A DNA stretch of 64,000 bases from Lytechinus pictus. Taxonomy: Eukaryota. Where the stretch lies: assembly GCF_037042905.1 (NCBI RefSeq), contig NC_087245.1, positions 25,732,001-25,796,000 of the forward strand. Direction: 5' to 3'. Shown piece after piece: positions 32,494 through 49,503 of this stretch (position 1 is its first letter; every line of letters begins with the position of its first letter). The notes under the pieces were generated by a model. The model was given only the letters and a program-made list of their open reading frames with translations, searched no databases and was not told the DNA's origin. Made by a program: the position numbers and the translations under genes.

Positions 32494-35012
32494 TTACCAA
32501 AGGTATGTCGCCATGGATGACACAGGAAGTTCTGTATTTTTTTAATAAGCATTGTTGAACGATGTTTAAGCCTTGACGGCAAGTCATAAAAACTGTGACA
32601 CAAAATATCTTAACTTCTCCATGCACTGGGAAGAATAGTGTCTCAAAGTGTGTGCCACAGTATGTTCACAGTATGGAACACACTATGAAATCACCTTCGC
32701 ACTGTTAAAATTTGAGTATTCCAACTGTGTGGATCACATATTCACATGGTCGACCGTGTAAACAAGCTGTGAACAGTCGCATATCCAGGTGTCCACAGTG
32801 TGAAAATATCTCCACATTGTTGAAATTTGTTATTTTTACAGTAAACGAGTAGCAAATAGGCATGAGTGCGATGGTGCGAGATTTCGCATAAGATGAAAGA
32901 AAGATGCTCTATTCACCATGGACCTATCAGAGATGGACATCAATCGGTTAGATAATAAATTCACTAACCGTTGACTATCATTGTCATCTGAAATCCGCCA
33001 TTTCACACGGTACCAAAATAGTAATTTGAATGATGATTCCAGTGAAAAATGTATTTTAAGGACGAAATTTTAGCACGTGTGAAACCGAAGTAGAATCACG
33101 AACGCTAATCACAATCCCGAATTCAAATTCTACTCGGGAGGTGCATTCCAATTAAGTTTCACTCAAATTACGGTGCGGATTTTACGTCTGAAAGGGTTGA
33201 CCTCCAAAACATCTTTTGAGGGGCGGAGCTTACGTGACTTTTCAAGCACTTCCTTAGATCATGCACTCATCGTAGTTTCTTTTTGCGTTGCAGTGCTTTG
33301 ATTGGGTTTCATCGACAAGTCACCAAGGACACAATAGCGCCCTCGCTCAGGAATTCGAATTCGAATTCAAATTCAAATCACAGTTTTCGAGTGAACGTGT
33401 GAATGGTACAATGATTCTAAAGACGAAGTGCAATTATCATTACAATGACGATTCAAGATTCTCGTCTAAAAAGGCCCTAACATTCTCTTCATATTAGTCA
33501 AATGGGTGTGCATTACAAGACTACAATGCTGAGAATATTGCATTATGGGATAGGAACCTGACCAGATATGAGTAATAAAGGAATTGAGGTGGCTCGTGGT
33601 TCGTATTTGCTTCAATAAAGTCATTAAAACGTAGAGATGTATGTAACATAGTTCATATACATGCACATAATGGAGATGTGCTAAAATCTGATTGAACAAA
33701 TAATAAAAGCAAGCTAGAGAAAATGAAAGATACACGAACTCTCACTCTACAAGATGAAGGTATAATGAATGGCAGGAAAATGAGCTTAAAGGCCACTTAA
33801 TGATGGACTTAATCCTGTAGGAGTATTCCAAATTTTGAGAACCCTCGAAAATGTAAATTTTGTGAGATTGGCACTTTTTTAAAGAGTATCTACCTTCTTT
33901 CATGTCCATGAACATTTTCCTTAAATTAAAGTTTGGTATGAAACTACTTGGAACGAACTTTGATAACACCAATACAATATCTGTCATTTTCAAAACCTTT
34001 TTTTTCTGTTGTTTGTCTTAAAAAAGCACCCCCTCTTCAAAAATCTTTCCAAGGGTCTGTTACAACAACTTTGGCAACTCTTTTTATTTAAATATGTTGT
34101 GAAGGAAATTGGGATATAGAATATATCCCAATTATATTATATATATATATAAATAATATATATATATATTGTAATGCCTCCAATGACAACTTAATGACTA
34201 CTAAAACAATAATAATGACTAAACACATAAATATGTAAATTATTATGTAATTGATTTACAAAGTGTTTTGTCCCCTGATACGCTGCATTCCACCCAATTA
34301 ATAAAAAAAAACGATGTTAGTTGTGATGAAGATAAACAAGTTATGGATCAACACAGCATCTCCTTTCACTACAGTATCTTTTGGGTCTATTCTAGGCTGC
34401 CTTTTACCAAGCCGAAATGCATTTGTCATGGCATTGACGTTGGAATAAATGAAAATTGATAATGGGTTTTGTAAAATCACAAACACATATTTCAGTAGGC
34501 TTTTGATTGTGCGGGATCTGGTTGGAATTGAAAACAAGTTCTTGAAAGGTCAAGTAATTCTTCACGTCCAGCAATGTTTTATGGCTTCATCAATCGTTAC
34601 ACAATTCGTGGCAATATCTTACCGTAATTATATCAGTATCTTCATGAATAGCTTTATGCGTATCAGACTATGGAAACGATAACAATTTTTTCTATTTTTT
34701 TTTGTCTGAAAGAGTTTTAAGATAGTGTATATGACGGCTTAACATTTGACTTTGTCACACTTGGAGGGTCGTTTTTATACATTTATTAATGTAAGCGATA
34801 TTTTGTAGTGTATGGTAGTATTTTCTTGCCATTAGTAAAACTACTTTGATAATGAAAACAAAAAAGCATCGTACATTCTCTCCACACGATGTGTTTTCGG
34901 GAGCATACATCAGTGGTTAATACACGATGATTGAAAAAAAATATTATGTAGTGTGATTGGTTCTTTCGTTCGTGCCTTTTTAAAAAAGGGTATCAATTGA
35001 GCCCTTTATATA

Positions 35013-35383: not shown

Positions 35384-35433
<50 letters not shown>

Positions 35434-35561
35434 ACAGCTTTGGCAACTCTTTTATTTAAATATTGTAAAGAAATGGATGAAGAGAACAATGGTAGGCGTA
35501 GCTTAAATCAAGGTCCCCCAGAGCTATCTACCCTTTGGAAAAATTGGTGATGCCGAAAAAA

Positions 35562-35633
35562 TGTCTCTGCCGGGAATCGAACCCGGGCCCCCAGCTTTGA
35601 TCGCCGGTGCCTTAACCACTAGACCACAGAGAC
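35562..35633 (-). tRNA. tRNA-like gene, anticodon TCA, copy 1
   Basis: Reverse complement identical to 36098-36169. Confidence 0.7.
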
Positions 35634-35966
35634 GGGTTAGTGGCTAGGGCGACCCCGATCCGATTGACCGTCAGATAGACAGATTTTCGACACTATACCA
35701 ATTATAATTTCCTTTGTCGGGTGAAGGTGGGTTTCGAACAATGACAAGCCGCCATGCTTCAGCTGGATCAAAGCTATTGCTTTGATACAGTACACGTATG
35801 GGAGAAAGTATACAAATGTGTAAAGTTATACATGTACAACAGCTTTGGCAACTCTTTTATTTAAATATTGTAAAGAAATGGATGAAGAGAACAATGGTAG
35901 GCGTAGCTTAAATCAAGGTCCCCCAGAGCTATCTACCCTTTGGAAAAATTGGTGATGCCGAAAAAA

Positions 35967-36038
35967 TGTCTCTGCCGGGAATCGAACCCGGGCCCCCAGC
36001 TTTGATCGCCGGTGCCTTAACCACTAGACCACAGAGAC
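35967..36038 (-). tRNA. tRNA-like gene, anticodon TCA, copy 2
   Basis: Reverse complement identical to 36098-36169. Confidence 0.7.
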
Positions 36039-36097
36039 GGGTTAGTGGCTAGGGCGACCCCGATCAATCGGATCGGGGTCGCCCTAGCCACTAACCC

Positions 36098-36169
36098 GTC
36101 TCTGTGGTCTAGTGGTTAAGGCACCGGCGATCAAAGCTGGGGGCCCGGGTTCGATTCCCGGCAGAGACA
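36098..36169 (+). tRNA. tRNA-like gene, anticodon TCA, copy 3
   Basis: GTCTCTG TG GTCT AGTGGTTA AGGC A CCGGC GATCAAA GCTGG GGGC CCGGG TTCGATT CCCGG CAGAGAC A + T6: full 72-nt cloverleaf with non-canonical G32/A33. Confidence 0.7.
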
Positions 36170-36502
36170 TTTTTTCGGCATCACCAATTTTTCCAAAGGG
36201 TAGATAGCTCTGGGGGACCTTGATTTAAGCCACGCCTACCATTGTTCTCTTCATCCATTTCTTTACAATATTTAAATAAAAGAGTTGCCAAAGCTGTTGT
36301 ACATGTATAACTTTACACATTTGTATACTTTCTCCCATACGTGTACTGTATCAAAGCAATAGCTTTGATCCAGCTGAAGCATGGCGGCTTGTCATTGTTC
36401 GAAACCCACCTTCACCCGACAAAGGAAATTATAATTGGTATAGTGTCGAAAATCTGTCTATCTGACGGTCAATCGGATCGGGGTCGCCCTAGCCACTAAC
36501 CC

Positions 36503-36574
36503 GTCTCTGTGGTCTAGTGGTTAAGGCACCGGCGATCAAAGCTGGGGGCCCGGGTTCGATTCCCGGCAGAGACA
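36503..36574 (+). tRNA. tRNA-like gene, anticodon TCA, copy 4
   Basis: Identical to 36098-36169, followed by T6. Confidence 0.7.
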
Positions 36575-39439
36575 TTTTTTCGGCATCACCAATTTTTCCA
36601 AAGGGTAGATAGCTCTGGGGGACCTTGATTTAAGCTCCGCCTACCATTGTTCTCTTCATCCATTTCTTTACAATATATATATATATATATATATACATAT
36701 ACATAGCGCTTAATACATCGGAAAGACATCTCTAAGTGTTCTACTTACATAACCCTAACGGATATCCATTAAGCTCACCTGAGAATGGCAAATGTATATC
36801 AATGCTTTTACCAAGGAAAATAGCGTCACAGATTCAAACTCTGAAATTGTATTTTTTCAGTCTGGAGACATTATTATGATATCATGGAATACGAAATGAT
36901 AGTTGGTGTGTTACATCGTTAGGTCCGTATTTTACGTAATGCCAAGATGGGCAGTCTGACGAGCTATTTTCAAAGGAAGCTCAACTTAGAAAATATCATA
37001 ACTTTCTTATTTCACATGAGATTTGGGTGGATTTTCCAATGCGTTGGATATCCGACTGTTTGTTCGAATCAACTTCCTGTGGGGTTGGGCGTGGCCCTTT
37101 CACAATTAACCCTCGGAATAGGCTTTATACGCCTACTGTTGTTTAATATTACTAACATTAATCTTATTATCAAAAAAATAAAAACAGGCCGTGTTGGAAA
37201 CTATCCTGTTTTATTTCACTTTGAAATATCTTCATCAATAATACCGCTTGCTTGAGAATTCCATTTAAGTGCCGAATTTTACTATTCAATGAGTAATCCC
37301 CTTGTTTGTGTTACACTTTTTCTCAAAACCAGACCTATATGAAGATATTTGTGAAAGTGGGTCATGTGTCAGATTTCATAAATTTGACATAGAGATCAGA
37401 CAATACCTCTCAAATCTTTACCAATGCAGATGTGTGCTGATCCAAAGACTAGAGCCCATGAGGCTGATGAAACAGTGTTTAGCCTCGGGTATACACCGAG
37501 GATCATTCATCAACTAAAGATCAGTTGCACTTTACCCAAATCAACTGTCTCTTTCATTTTCGCTCTCTTTTGTGACAGAGTTGCCTACATACTATTCACT
37601 TGATATAAATCGGTTCAATGGGCTCTAACTTCCGTTATTCTATGCAATGATAACCCGTAATCGTCATTTTGCAAAAATCCAGAAAGAAAATGATCTTTCA
37701 TTTACAAACATTTAACCGATAGACTTATCAGTCATGATGCTTCACATTGTCTACCGTCAGTTTTATTTGACGACGCTGTGTTCATGACTTATCACGGTTA
37801 TTTTTTTTTCTCCTACACCCCCCCCCCTGGTTACATGATTATGAAGAAAAAATAGAAATGACAAAAAAATCCAACGCTTCGCCGCAAGGTTGCATTAAGT
37901 CTGCATTACATCACCCCAGATTTTCAACAACTTCGTTATCTCCAATAAAACAACTGATTGTCTTAAAGATATTGATATTAGGATTGTCTAATGTAAAAAT
38001 TAGGACCTGCCATACAATATTCGTTGACATAATTTTGCTTTCCGTGAAGAAACCTTTTTGCTAGTTGTCAAAATCCTTACAACCTCCTCTCTGGTCCAAT
38101 ATCATTTCAACTGAGAGTAATGGATTATATCATAGTCACGTGTCAATCCCACTGACATTACAAAACTGCATTTATTTGATTCTCACTTGTTCTTTCTATT
38201 CACTTACTTCTGTTGTCATCCTGTCTCCTCTCCTCCTTTTCCTAATACAAAAACGAGTAAAATTTATCCCAATATTGGGTAGTAAGGCAACATGCATGTT
38301 TGCTGGGTCCTTTTTTTTTACCCCATATTGGGCAAAATGCATGTTTAAAGGGTAAATTTCAACGCAACATTGCGTAAAATTTACAAAATATTTGGTATCT
38401 TTTTATCGAACCGACAAACATGTTCCCATTTTATCCAATATTGGGTAAACCTTTTTTTTAAGAGTCACGTCATGTTCATGACGCTGCACAAAATGCTACG
38501 TCATTGCCATTTCTGCATGTATTGACCAGGGACCCGAAACACAAAACTTAGCAAATCATCGTAAAAACATTTCTTTACGATTGATTGCATTGACTACAAT
38601 GTGCAATTAATCGTCAAAAGCAAGCGTATGATTAATCGTTAACCTTTGTGTTGCGGGACCCAGGTGACTTCAAATCATCTTTTAGGGTGTTTAGAAGGAG
38701 TGTCTGGCAGACCTGGGGATTAGTTTTTAACTCAATCTTCATACAAAATCAGCCTGAATATGTTATTTTCCGTGAAACGACATCGAGAGAATCGAATACT
38801 TCGGTGTTTCGAAAATTAGACGTATTGGAGGTCATCGTCGTTGCCATGGAAACGTATCTAATATCGTCGTAGTCTGCTAACGAGATTACTAATGTGTGCT
38901 CTCACTAGTCACTGTTGCATCTTCCTCTTCTTGTTTTTAAATATAAATATGGTGACCATTTATTTCCAATTTTGAAACCCTTATGAAATCTAAGAAGAAA
39001 AAAACAGAGACTCGCTATTTTTATCAATACTAACCATTCCCCTTTGACAGCGTAGAGCTTTTTCAGAATCCCGCATTGCTAATGTATCTCAGCCCAGAAA
39101 CCAGGGCTAAACATGTCACATGTTAGAATATCAATTTAAACTTATATGTAATGAAGAGTCTATTTGCTTTCTTCGTCAAATGAGACAAATAAAAATAAAC
39201 TATTTTTATGATCATCATCAAAATTACCATTTAGAATAAAATTGATAATGATGATGGTGATAATAATGATGTTAATGAAGTTGTTATTGTCATTAAAGGT
39301 ATCGTTATTGCATCGATGCCAAACCTAGGTTAGTCTGCAAGCACAAACTCATATTTCACACTTTAACCAATAAAGGTCTAGAGTGAAATAGACGCCTAAG
39401 GTCACACGGGCCTAACTACAACTGGCAGGCCAAAGATAT

Positions 39440-46347: not shown

Positions 46348-48791
46348 TTTTTGTCTCACCTGCGAAGCAGAGTGAGACTATAGGCGCCGCTTTTCCGACG
46401 GCGCACAGTGGGCCGGGGCGAAACAAAAGTGCGCCAAAAGTCATTTTGGGCAATTTCAGATTTTTAATTTTTGTCATGCCCAGCTGAAAGACAACACTTT
46501 GAAGAATACTTCAGCAAAATATTTCATTCGGGAATTTGCATAAAGGTTGTTAATTTCCTACCTCAAATCGTAAAATGTGAAATTTTGCGAAATGCCGCGT
46601 GTATGACAACTTAGTTGAAAAACAAGCAATTTCACGGGAGGTTTTTCATGGAGGAATCTGAAATGGCACCCACATAATCCTGATATATTCTTTTTTTCGT
46701 GTGAAATGGTTCAAATTAGAAAAAAGACGATACCAGCTGCCCGTTTTTGCCCGTTTTCATGTTAGAGCCGATTTTACTTGGCACAACACCCCCAAAACCT
46801 ATTAAAAAACGGTCATTTTTATACCGCGCAGTCATCGCAGCGCACCGTGTGTGGTGTACATCGCCGTTCATTTTTGCACGGCGAGGACGATTCCCCCTTC
46901 CATTCCATGAAAAAGACATGAATTCCTGGCATAATGCAAACAAAATAAAAGTTGATAACGCATATAAGGGCTTCCCGCCCCTCTTCCAGAGATAAAATTT
47001 ACTTGTAGAATAATTTCAGCCAAAAGCCCTCCTCACAGTAAAACATTCGTGGTCCTATATACTCTGCGTTTTACCCAAGTCTACACCGCTTGATAAAGCA
47101 CGGTTAATATTTTTCAGATTTTTAAGTATTTTTTTAATCAAATGATCACTTTGATGCCATATAATTATTTTCAGGATCCCATACACACTTGTTAGGCATG
47201 TGAGAAGCATAAACCAACATTCACTCTGGTCAATCTTAAAGTAACACATAACACAAAGTTTATATACTACACATTGTTTAGCGTAATTTGTCTTTTCACA
47301 GATAGGTTTTAAGTAGCCAATCAAAATTTGGTATCAAAGTGACGTCATATCGGCTTTAAATTATGTTCAGTCGATTCTACGCCTAAAATTACCCTTAATC
47401 AGCATGTTTAAGTAAAAATATAACACGGAATATAATTTTGGCGCACTTTCAACTCATTCTGGCCCACTGTGCGGCGGCGGCGGCGTCAACGCCAAATCGT
47501 AACCCAAGGTTAAGTTTTTGAAATGACAACTTAGAAAGTATATAAACCTAGTTCATGAACTTGGACATAAGGTTAATCAAGTATTACTAAACATCTTGCC
47601 TGAGTTTCAGGTCACATGACCAAGGTCAAAGGTCATTTAGGATCAATGAACTTAGACCATGTTGGGGGAATCAACATCAAAATCTTAACCCAAGGTTACG
47701 TTTTTGAAATGACAGCATAACTTAGAAAGTATATAAACCTAGTGCATGAACTTGGACATAAGGTTAATCAAGTATTACTAAATATCTTGCCTGAGTTTCA
47801 GGTCACATGACCAAGGTCAAAGGTCATTTAGGGTCAACGAACTTAGACCATGTTGGGTGAATCAACATCAAAATCTTAACCGAAGGTTAAGTTTTTGAAA
47901 TGTCGTCATAACTTAAAAATATATATATATGGAATTAGTTCATGAAACGTGGAAATAAGGTTAATCAAGTATTACTGAACATCCTGCCTGAGTTTGAAGT
48001 CACACGACCAAGGTCAAAGGTCATTTAAGGTCAATGAACTTTGGCCATGTTGGGGGTATAATTTGAATTACCATCATAACTTTAAAAGTTTATGGATCTG
48101 GTTCAGGAAACTTGGACACATAAGTAATCAAGTATCACTTAACATCCTGTGTGAGTTTCAGGTCACATGACTAAGGTCAAATGTCATTCAAGGTCCATAA
48201 ACTTTGGCCATGTTTGAGATATTTGTGGAAATACCACCATTACTCTGTAAGTGTATTGGTCTAGTTCATAAAACTTGGACATAAGAGTAATCAGGTATCA
48301 CTAAACATCCTGTGCGAGTTTCAGGTCACATGGCTCAGGTCAGTGGACTTTGGCCATGTTGGTGTATTTGTTAAATAACCATCATAACTCTGAAAGTGAA
48401 TAGATCGAGTTCATAAAACTTGGACATAAGAGTAATCAAGTATAATTAAACATCTCATGCGAGTTTCAGGTCACATGACCAAAGTCAAAGGTCATTTAAG
48501 GTAATTGAACTTTGGCCATTTTAGAGGTAATTATTAGATTGCTGTCATAACTTTCAAAGTTTATAGTAAAGTTTATAAAATGTGGATGTAGGGGTAATCA
48601 AGTATCACTGGCGAGTCTTTGGTCGTATGATCAAGGTCAAATGTCATTTAGGGTCAATGAACGAAGTATTGTATCATTATATGAATGGTGTTTTTTGTGA
48701 ATAATAATTTTATAGTAGTTTTCAAAGTCAGCACTGCTGCAATATTGAATCGTGCGATGTAGGTGAGACTGTCAGAGGCGCTCCATTTGTT
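46348..48791 (+). mobile_element. Helentron-associated (HINE/DINE-like) element with a central ~180-bp tandem array
   Basis: SubTIRs GTCTCACCTGC / GTAGGTGAGAC, T-rich insertion site, (GGC)n tract, and 6-7 units containing GGTCACATGACCAAGGTCAAAGGTCA at ~47500-48665. Confidence 0.8.
46404..47471. mobile_element. Transib-type non-autonomous transposon with 5-bp TSD
   Basis: CGGCG|CACAGTGGGCC-N11-AAAGTGCGCCAAAA ... TTTTGGCGCACTTT-N11-GGCCCACTGTG|CGGCG. Confidence 0.85.
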
Positions 48792-49322: not shown

Positions 49323-49383
49323 AGGGTGTGTGTGTGTGTGTGTGTGGGTGTGTATGTGTGTGTATGTTTTGTGAGATTATACA

Positions 49384-49503
49384 TGCACAACAGCTTTGGC
49401 AACTCTACGGCATCACCAATTTTTCCAAAGGCCAGAAAGCTCTGGGGAACCTTGATTTAAGCTACACCTACCATTGTTCTCTTCATCCATTTCTTCACAA
49501 ATC
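49384..49503. repeat. Internally deleted relative of the 35.4-36.7 kb palindromic element
   Basis: Left terminus ACAACAGCTTTGGCAACTCT fused to right terminus CGGCATCACCAATTTTTCCAAAGG...CATCCATTTCTT; adjacent to (TA)n/(TG)n. Confidence 0.85.

Follow-up and report, generated by a model that had tools for sequence, protein, structure and literature searches.

A tRNA-like gene with a UCA anticodon as a module of a mobile 405-bp unit in Lytechinus pictus, probably a passenger of Penelope-like elements

The tRNA-like sequence at positions 36098-36169 (+) of the window, by which we mean the whole analysed stretch of 64,000 nucleotides of Lytechinus pictus DNA, is a module of a 405-bp unit that is dispersed over many contigs of the genome. 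An earlier note on this DNA, made from the letters alone, had regarded the sequence as borne by a mobile repeat, and this holds. We consider it probable that the tRNA head belongs to a young non-autonomous retroelement which travels as a passenger of Neptune-like Penelopes resident in this genome. The head is probably not a working suppressor tRNA.

The tRNA-like module and the unit that carries it

At window positions 36098-36169 (+) ARAGORN calls a 72-nt cloverleaf with the anticodon TCA, and Rfam RF00005 scores the same stretch with 52.4 bits compared to a gathering score of 29, with zero non-standard pairs marked. The module contains A and B boxes, an acceptor stem of 7 bp (GTCTCTG/CAGAGAC), the discriminator A, a 4-nt variable loop and the anticodon loop GATCAAA, which includes the local variant A33. 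Directly 3' of it lies a run of six T at 36170-36175 (+) that resembles a Pol III terminator. The complete cloverleaf with standard pairs throughout and the TCA anticodon followed by T6, both claimed in the earlier note, were thus recovered with independent tools. The same is true for the four identical copies: both ARAGORN and Rfam find further heads at 36503-36574 (+), in the second unit of the right arm described below, and at 35967-36038 (−) and 35562-35633 (−) in the left arm. These four heads are parts of one insertion and not four independent genes. Taken alone, the 72-mer folds moderately better than its shuffles (z −2.0), and the D-stem is open in the minimum free energy structure.

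The head carries the same UCA anticodon as tRNA-Sec (RF01852) and opal suppressor tRNAs. It is nevertheless not tRNA-Sec, as had been argued before, because it is too short and because the genome possesses a separate, real tRNA-Sec of 86 nt (76.9 bits) at two loci elsewhere. While tRNA-Sec has about 86-95 nt, a long variable arm and an extended acceptor/T fold, the head measures 72 nt, folds as 7/5 and has only a short variable loop; with 53 candidates scored, the 35 listed RF01852 matches include no family head.

The insertion in the window spans 35429-36673 and consists of two head-to-head arms of the 405-bp unit, which are 99% complementary over 613 nt. It is located between a left (TA)n target microsatellite (35386-35428) and a right one (36673-36705). 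The left, inverted arm of about 1.6 units (35429-36065, −) has its outer 3' end in the long “tail” class, after ...GTTGTACA and about 34 nt beyond the short end. The right arm of about 1.5 units (36064-36673, +) terminates at the short end A (...TTCTTTACAA, followed by TATA), and the two arms meet at 36064-36065 with an overlap of 2 nt. Further features were located downstream of the T6 run of the first unit in the right arm. The sequence GATAGCTC at 36203-36210 (+) is one mismatch away from GAAAGCTH, the 3' half of the minimal hammerheads of local Penelope elements. The site of the family motif GCTACGCC at 36229-36236 (+) reads GCCACGCC in this unit and is intact in the left arm. The region with two preferred 3' ends extends over 36260-36327 (+), with end A at about 36268 and end B at about 36319-36327, and at 36352-36502 (+) the tRNA, lacking its anticodon arm, and the ~90 nt that follow it are repeated in degenerate, inverted form.

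Throughout the 812-Mb genome (174 pieces; 39 matches scored out of 1,247 candidates) the unit has matches of 97-100% identity on many contigs. We counted 1,661 heads with exact-flank patterns or 1,775 with shorter flanks, both numbers being lower bounds. The units are arranged as dispersed monomers, as tandem runs and as head-to-head pairs in (TA)n. Long arrays occur as well, for example about 25 units in a 10-kb stretch of contig C28 and about 45 consecutive heads on contig C2, and unequal crossover probably acts in the very long ones.

The window also contains older, 5'-truncated fragments of the family without tRNA at 49377-49500 and 34061-34107. The former contains the rare GAAAGCTC variant and represents a small insertion of the inverted type next to a (TA)n/(TG)n run. 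Other observations from the same stretch are an apparently ordinary tRNA-Leu(TAG) gene at 8144-8226 (−; 58.9 bits), which is followed by a long T run, and a tandem repeat at 47494-48609 with periods of 191 and 163 bp.

Insertion ends and the Penelope-like elements of the genome

The ends of the insertions were mapped for 82 clusters from 69 loci, with one pair being a segmental duplicate. The loci were taken from the best BLAST hits, the A33 set, a small number of long arrays and the first pattern hits on contigs C1 and C2. We found that 101 out of 114 outer 3' ends fall into two classes: 48 lie at site A, about 99 nt 3' of the tRNA, and 53 belong to class B, which lies 30-60 nt (mostly about 50) further downstream. 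Three of the remaining ends share a minor site and 10 lie elsewhere. Sites A and B both represent TA-like microhomologies. The 5' ends (n=118) are scattered, and insertions start anywhere in the unit. No pile-up of 5' ends was observed at the tRNA start (13 out of 118 compared to 10.8 expected, p 0.28, with short undetected pieces allowed for).

Inverted arrangements were found in 33 out of the 82 clusters. Among them 23 combine an A with a B end, one has two A ends, one has two B ends and eight contain another end, so that A and B are paired in 23 out of the 25 inverted insertions with both ends classifiable (p about 1e-5). The inversion point differs each time, and the outer ends are unequal. 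A simple repeat is present on both sides of 48 clusters, on one side of 25 and on neither side of nine; 73 out of 82 therefore touch one. Genome-wide, 262 A ends and 283 B ends on the + strand directly adjoin TA runs, the counts for the − strand being left out as multiple matches inflate them. Neither a fixed terminal inverted repeat nor a target-site duplication was seen in the flanks inspected. The earlier suggestion that the tRNA might act as a self-encoded primer is not supported, because the 3' ends point to priming from the TA repeats of the target, 100-150 nt downstream of the tRNA.

A search of the genome for GIY-YIG domains yielded 59 matches, and 30 of these loci were examined. Penelope open frames reach up to 1,026 aa, and each of the three that were scanned contains a reverse transcriptase (RT) as well as a GIY-YIG domain at the C-terminus. 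The proteins carry CxxxxCxxC/H before the nuclease, and the elements possess minimal hammerheads and TA-flanked ends. This cysteine motif is presented as a feature of Neptune and Nematis in the account of Craig et al. 2021 (PMC8557442), and “Neptune-like” is used here on the basis of domain order and cysteine motif. A pattern for the minimal hammerhead, a motif type as portrayed in PMC4209133, gave 820 matches compared to 33 in the controls. Downstream of the inferred cleavage site, five Penelope families have a short end at 46-54 nt and a long one at 82-111 nt. In the autonomous element L107 the inverted arms differ, one having the short and the other the long end, and both ends are also present in L108. 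Neptune-like Penelope families that combine long open frames with minimal hammerheads and a choice of two 3' ends are numerous in this genome (L106-L110, L173-L202).

A further hint towards a partnership arises from a short motif. With at most one mismatch, GCTACGTC occurs in 9 out of 19 hammerhead representatives, several of which are related to each other, 17-32 nt after the cleavage site, compared to 0.9% of shuffles. It recurs in Penelope 3' regions and may be a protein-binding site. The GCTACGCC of the unit matches this motif. It precedes end A by 32 nt and follows GATAGCTC by 18 nt; from GATAGCTC itself the distance is 58 nt to end A and 109 nt to end B. The probability of finding the motif at the matching place by chance is 0.6% alone, 1.3% for GATAGCTC alone and 8e-5 for both jointly, where one must keep in mind that both matches were noticed post hoc. 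In the light of this likeness, also noticed post hoc, GATAGCTC is a possible remnant of a hammerhead.

The unit and the sampled autonomous Penelopes have this short motif in common, but not a long 3' stretch. BLAST of the unit against the 30 GIY-YIG loci revealed no direct similarity except for embedded unit copies. The best alignment of the unit to a hammerhead 3' region reaches only z 4.2 among 30, and GAAAGCTC is rare. For these reasons a single partner family was not identified among the sampled Penelope loci. Several candidate connections were considered and rejected. GAAAGCTC as the ancestral state was discarded, its exact form being present in only 14 copies and in 0 out of 8 more diverged rows. 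Locus L177, considered as a hammerhead-bearing ancestor, turned out to consist of an old unit copy to which the 3' end of a Penelope is joined. A link to the selenoproteins of Naiads was dropped as well: the potential partners have C-terminal nucleases and long open frames, and there is no element with an N-terminal nuclease in the 30 loci examined out of 59 GIY-YIG matches. Unit copies fused to Penelope fragments without a TA run were observed at L056:1094-1306 and L177, and could be template switches or nested insertions. The window contains no remnant of a Penelope protein, a relative of the Penelope protein was not found in the PDB, and a literature search for a mechanistic Penelope paper returned nothing relevant.

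We propose the following mechanism for the passenger. The RT/GIY-YIG protein of a Neptune-like Penelope is predicted to move the non-coding unit in trans. Its endonuclease would nick a TA microsatellite, and the freed TA ends would prime reverse transcription on the element RNA at the two TA-like sites, one per target strand. Such priming from both target strands at A and B could lead to the inverted insertions with unequal ends. Copying would pass over more than one unit, starting from a circular or a multimeric template, and joining would occur at microhomologies. The distribution of rare variants within 78 clusters can be compared with this scheme. Thirty-eight variants are common to all units of an insertion, 25 to some units, and 157 are confined to a single unit. 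The first group fits repeated copying of one template, be it a circle or a multimer, while the excess of single-unit variants over all-unit variants counts against the scheme.

The tRNA module itself is predicted to provide the element with a Pol III/TFIIIC promoter and possibly with a processing site, too. A Pol III/TFIIIC promoter of this kind has been proposed for Helenus in the account given in PMC10886601. The T6 run is a difficulty for the promoter role because full-length RNA would require that it is read through, or bypassed via Pol II read-through transcripts. The intact acceptor stem and T6 also exceed the needs of a promoter, which counts against our explanation.

RNA reads of the unit were found in two raw RNA-seq runs (organism B), with 1,842 and 1,291 reads out of 12.9 million each. 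They are mostly 90-99% alike, occur about equally in both orientations, and cross the T6 run and the unit junctions. The level of 143 and 100 per million compares to at least 830 expected from the genomic share, given a similar copy number there, and the reads look like read-through of embedded copies. The junction-spanning ones are explained by tandem DNA copies. No pile-ups of starts or ends were seen among the unit reads of these two ordinary cDNA libraries, a library type that is blind to a 78-nt RNA and to an unpolyadenylated circle. An RNA holder was not listed among the indexed runs.

Alternative explanations

A first alternative, which takes up the processing signal named in the earlier note, refines the passenger model and is compatible with it: the cloverleaf could have replaced the hammerhead, with RNase P and/or RNase Z cutting multimers at the heads into unit-length RNA, which would then be circularised and copied by rolling reverse transcription. 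We regard this as possible but doubtful. The unit has no hammerhead; none is among the Rfam matches up to E 10, and the hammerhead core pattern is found neither in the window nor upstream of end A genome-wide. A split or variant hammerhead (CTGAAGC ... CGAAACCC facing GGGTA) was considered and rejected, because its GAAA form is confined to one subfamily. The linked alternative G281/A304 is present in 97-100% of the RNA reads and in X19 contigs, and both forms keep the hairpin paired.

The state of the acceptor stem is another argument for processing. RNase P and RNase Z require the acceptor and T stems, not the anticodon. The sampled host tRNAs Glu(TTC), Gly(TCC) and Gly(GCC) tie as candidates for the parent, with 50-53 identical columns out of 73-75, and in comparison to Glu(TTC) or Gly(TCC) four out of the seven acceptor pairs of the head differ on both sides while all still pair. 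Either selection has held the stem, or the donor was a tRNA outside the sample. A shortage of shared variants in the tRNA relative to the body was considered and rejected: variants shared within insertions affect 3 out of 72 tRNA sites and 25 out of 267 body sites (p 0.23); none is located at tRNA positions 1-62 (0 out of 62, p 0.007), a boundary picked afterwards. Host clusters of tRNA-Lys, Gly(TCC), Glu(TTC) and Gly(GCC) genes were noted at C4:9.70-9.74 Mb, C13:22.08-22.16 Mb, C16:2.59-2.60 Mb and C3:30.19-30.34 Mb.

The fold of the unit can be read in two ways. The reason why the unit folds far better than its shuffles (z −6.1) is that the tRNA and the part following it recur, inverted and degenerate, in the last 150 nt (score 109.5, compared to 96 for the best of 200 shuffles). 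In size and rod fold the unit is similar to the circular RNAs of retrozymes as pictured in PMC7229834, and the 38 rare variants fixed across the tandem and inverted units of short insertions are likewise in agreement with this alternative. The rod is, on the other hand, predicted to hide the cloverleaf in the monomer, with part of T6 pairing with a downstream GAAAA: the circular monomer prefers it with −135 kcal/mol over −112 kcal/mol for the forced cloverleaf. The sense strand folds better than the antisense strand (z −5.8 compared to −3.7 with 40 shuffles, which is not a formal test). An excess of G.U over A.C is absent from the rod (13 compared to 11), giving no signal of strand selection. 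The rod may therefore be a fossil of an old inversion rather than an adaptation of the RNA.

Three further observations argue against processing at the heads. The 5' ends do not accumulate at the tRNA start, and the 99 nt from the tRNA 3' end to end A are about twice the spacing between hammerhead and end. In addition, RNase P and RNase Z leave 5'-P and 3'-OH products, which are not the ends that RtcB joins. It is RtcB that joined retrozyme monomers in vitro in the experiments outlined in PMC7229834.

A bolder version of the same idea is kept alive by the intact acceptor stem. In this version a tRNA gene would have taken the place of the hammerhead altogether, with transcription by Pol III, cleavage by RNase P/Z, a built-in antisense leader alternating between the two folds (cloverleaf and rod), and copying of the monomer by a Neptune-like RT. 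We think this unlikely. If it were true, any mature UCA tRNA set free would turn a selfish repeat into an origin of UGA read-through.

A tRNA-derived SINE of the ordinary kind, mobilised by a LINE and secondarily amplified in tandem, would also contain tRNA-related sequence with A and B boxes and would show fixed 3' ends together with variable 5' ends. We consider this origin very unlikely for several reasons. The insertions do not have the tRNA as their 5' end but begin at any point of the unit and continue through the head; the tRNA is directly followed by T6; and two alternative 3' ends exist which are paired in inverted copies. The ordinary SINE-like family of this genome differs, having a single head with a broken anticodon stem. 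This separate family with its tRNA-related head is represented by L092, L096, L098 and L099 (within L092-L099).

Returning to the anticodon, the earlier note had raised the possibility of an opal suppressor. According to this explanation the heads would be transcribed by Pol III as pre-tRNAs, matured, charged (with Trp as the least unlikely amino acid) and used to read UGA, be it as a by-product or for the benefit of element or host. On the evidence of the copies compared here this is highly improbable, although part of the reasoning had to be revised in its favor. The note had argued against efficient decoding on the basis of A33 and G32. Both are indeed found in the window copies, but as a family trait A33 does not hold: among 1,661 exact-flank heads only 16 have GATCAAA. 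The loop typical of the family is GTTCAAA, in which U33 is normal (61 out of 67 insertions with readable loop, 70 examined), T33 is read in 485 out of 490 and 295 out of 299 RNA reads, and G32 is the sole oddity of the loop across the family. The combination of U33 and a UCA cloverleaf is thus a family feature that is absent from the four window copies.

Further points in favor of a suppressor are the full cloverleaf, the A and B boxes, the T6 directly behind and the retention of TCA in 1,744 out of 1,775 heads genome-wide. Random anticodon loops and broken stems in other copies, which the earlier note had named as evidence against its view, were not encountered; stems, T-run and TCA are kept in these 1,744 heads. 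This uniformity is due to the youth of the family rather than to selection. The anticodon varies like its loop neighbors: its three sites account for changes in 31 out of 1,775 heads (0.58% per site) and the four remaining sites of the loop for changes in 50 out of 1,775 (0.70% per site), a weak test given a young family with non-independent tandem copies. TCA is accordingly the anticodon of the founder, carried along without extra constraint in a young family whose tandem copies are not independent. Single diverged copies at L104, L156:2057-2250 and L186 have the anticodons TCC, TGT and TCG, consistent with drift.

The spread of A33 also speaks against a suppressor. The 16 A33 heads lie at 10 loci, and this change arose on several subfamily backgrounds. 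In three out of four multi-head A33 insertions, both arms in the window among them, every head has A33, and therefore templates with a broken U-turn still spread. G32 is atypical. C34 is reportedly a major identity base for yeast TrpRS, and this position is U in the head. A73 and G1-C72 do fit features of yeast tRNA-Trp given in PMC2965240. The long Penelope frames that were read are open without read-through (a TGA was present in one broken copy), a tRNA-Sec is encoded by the genome itself, the reads described above gave no evidence of a discrete RNA, and more than 1,700 active suppressor genes would presumably be costly.

Least probable is dispersal at the DNA level, in which a foldback element or MITE, or a rolling-circle satellite with arrays formed by unequal crossover, would carry the tRNA as passive cargo: the window copy does resemble a 613-nt inverted repeat and very long arrays exist (C28, C2), but 49 out of 82 clusters are not inverted, the 33 that are have varying inversion points and unequal outer ends, 5' ends are scattered, and the inspected flanks lack the terminal repeats and duplications expected of such elements, so that this explanation is largely refuted.

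Comparison with known systems

The unit falls outside retrozymes, as it lacks the hammerhead, and likewise outside SINEs, TRIMs, MITEs and tRNA-Sec. By analogy it would appear to work like a non-LTR retrozyme or a non-autonomous Penelope element.

Among tRNA-derived SINEs (SINE2) the likeness consists of tRNA-related A and B boxes and of false “SeC/suppressor” calls by tRNA finders, whereas the head studied here is internal to a permuted tandem unit, keeps its acceptor stem and is followed straight by T6. The present family explains well over a thousand potential false calls of this kind in the genome. Helenus/TRIMp3 (Kojima 2024, PMC10886601) and Cassandra are, as characterized there, LTR elements that possess a PBS and a PPT, show target duplications of 4-5 bp and are moved by Gypsy/Copia. 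The unit in contrast has variable 5' ends, two 3' ends, TA flanks in accordance with microsatellite targeting, and no internal non-repeated segment.

The non-LTR retrozymes of animals (Cervera & de la Pena 2020, PMC7229834; Li, Clavereau & Pollet 2026, bioRxiv 10.64898/2026.07.22.740005) are closer. As depicted in these sources they are non-coding, strongly structured tandem units of about 400 nt that occur as monomers to multimers, and they are proposed to be non-autonomous derivatives of Penelope-like elements, as we read our unit. With its 405 bp, non-coding tandem organization and dispersal, the unit corresponds to the range of about 170-400 nt given for retrozymes. The type I hammerhead is treated as defining there, while the unit has a full tRNA-like gene with T6 instead; the term “tRNA” has 0 occurrences in the main text of the 2026 preprint.

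Penelope-like elements (Neptune/Nematis-type, Naiad, and Chlamys with MRC1) show the same pattern of truncation, tandem arrangement, inversion, one-sided tail and (TA)n flanks. The relevant parts of PMC8557442 mention 5' truncation, partial tandems, an inverted 5'-truncated copy and a one-end tail of 30-40 bp; (TA)n targets are stated for Naiads, and non-autonomous head-to-tail families are known for Chlamys (MRC1). The unit shares the 5' truncation with tandems and an inverted copy, the tail on one end and the microsatellite targeting. It differs in having no open reading frame, a tail of about 50 nt rather than 30-40, and the tRNA-like module. No description of a tRNA-bearing Penelope passenger was found in the literature searched, which excluded Repbase/Dfam and most subscription papers.

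Non-autonomous elements that borrow foreign machinery are known from other classes, with SINEs borrowing from LINEs and Helenus and Cassandra from LTR elements. The unit looks like the missing counterpart, a passenger of Penelope-like elements that bears a small RNA gene, and could reveal, as a test provided by nature, which features Penelope proteins require in cis. As it keeps the two 3' ends and the GCTACGTC motif in the absence of the hammerhead, the role of the ribozyme becomes testable.
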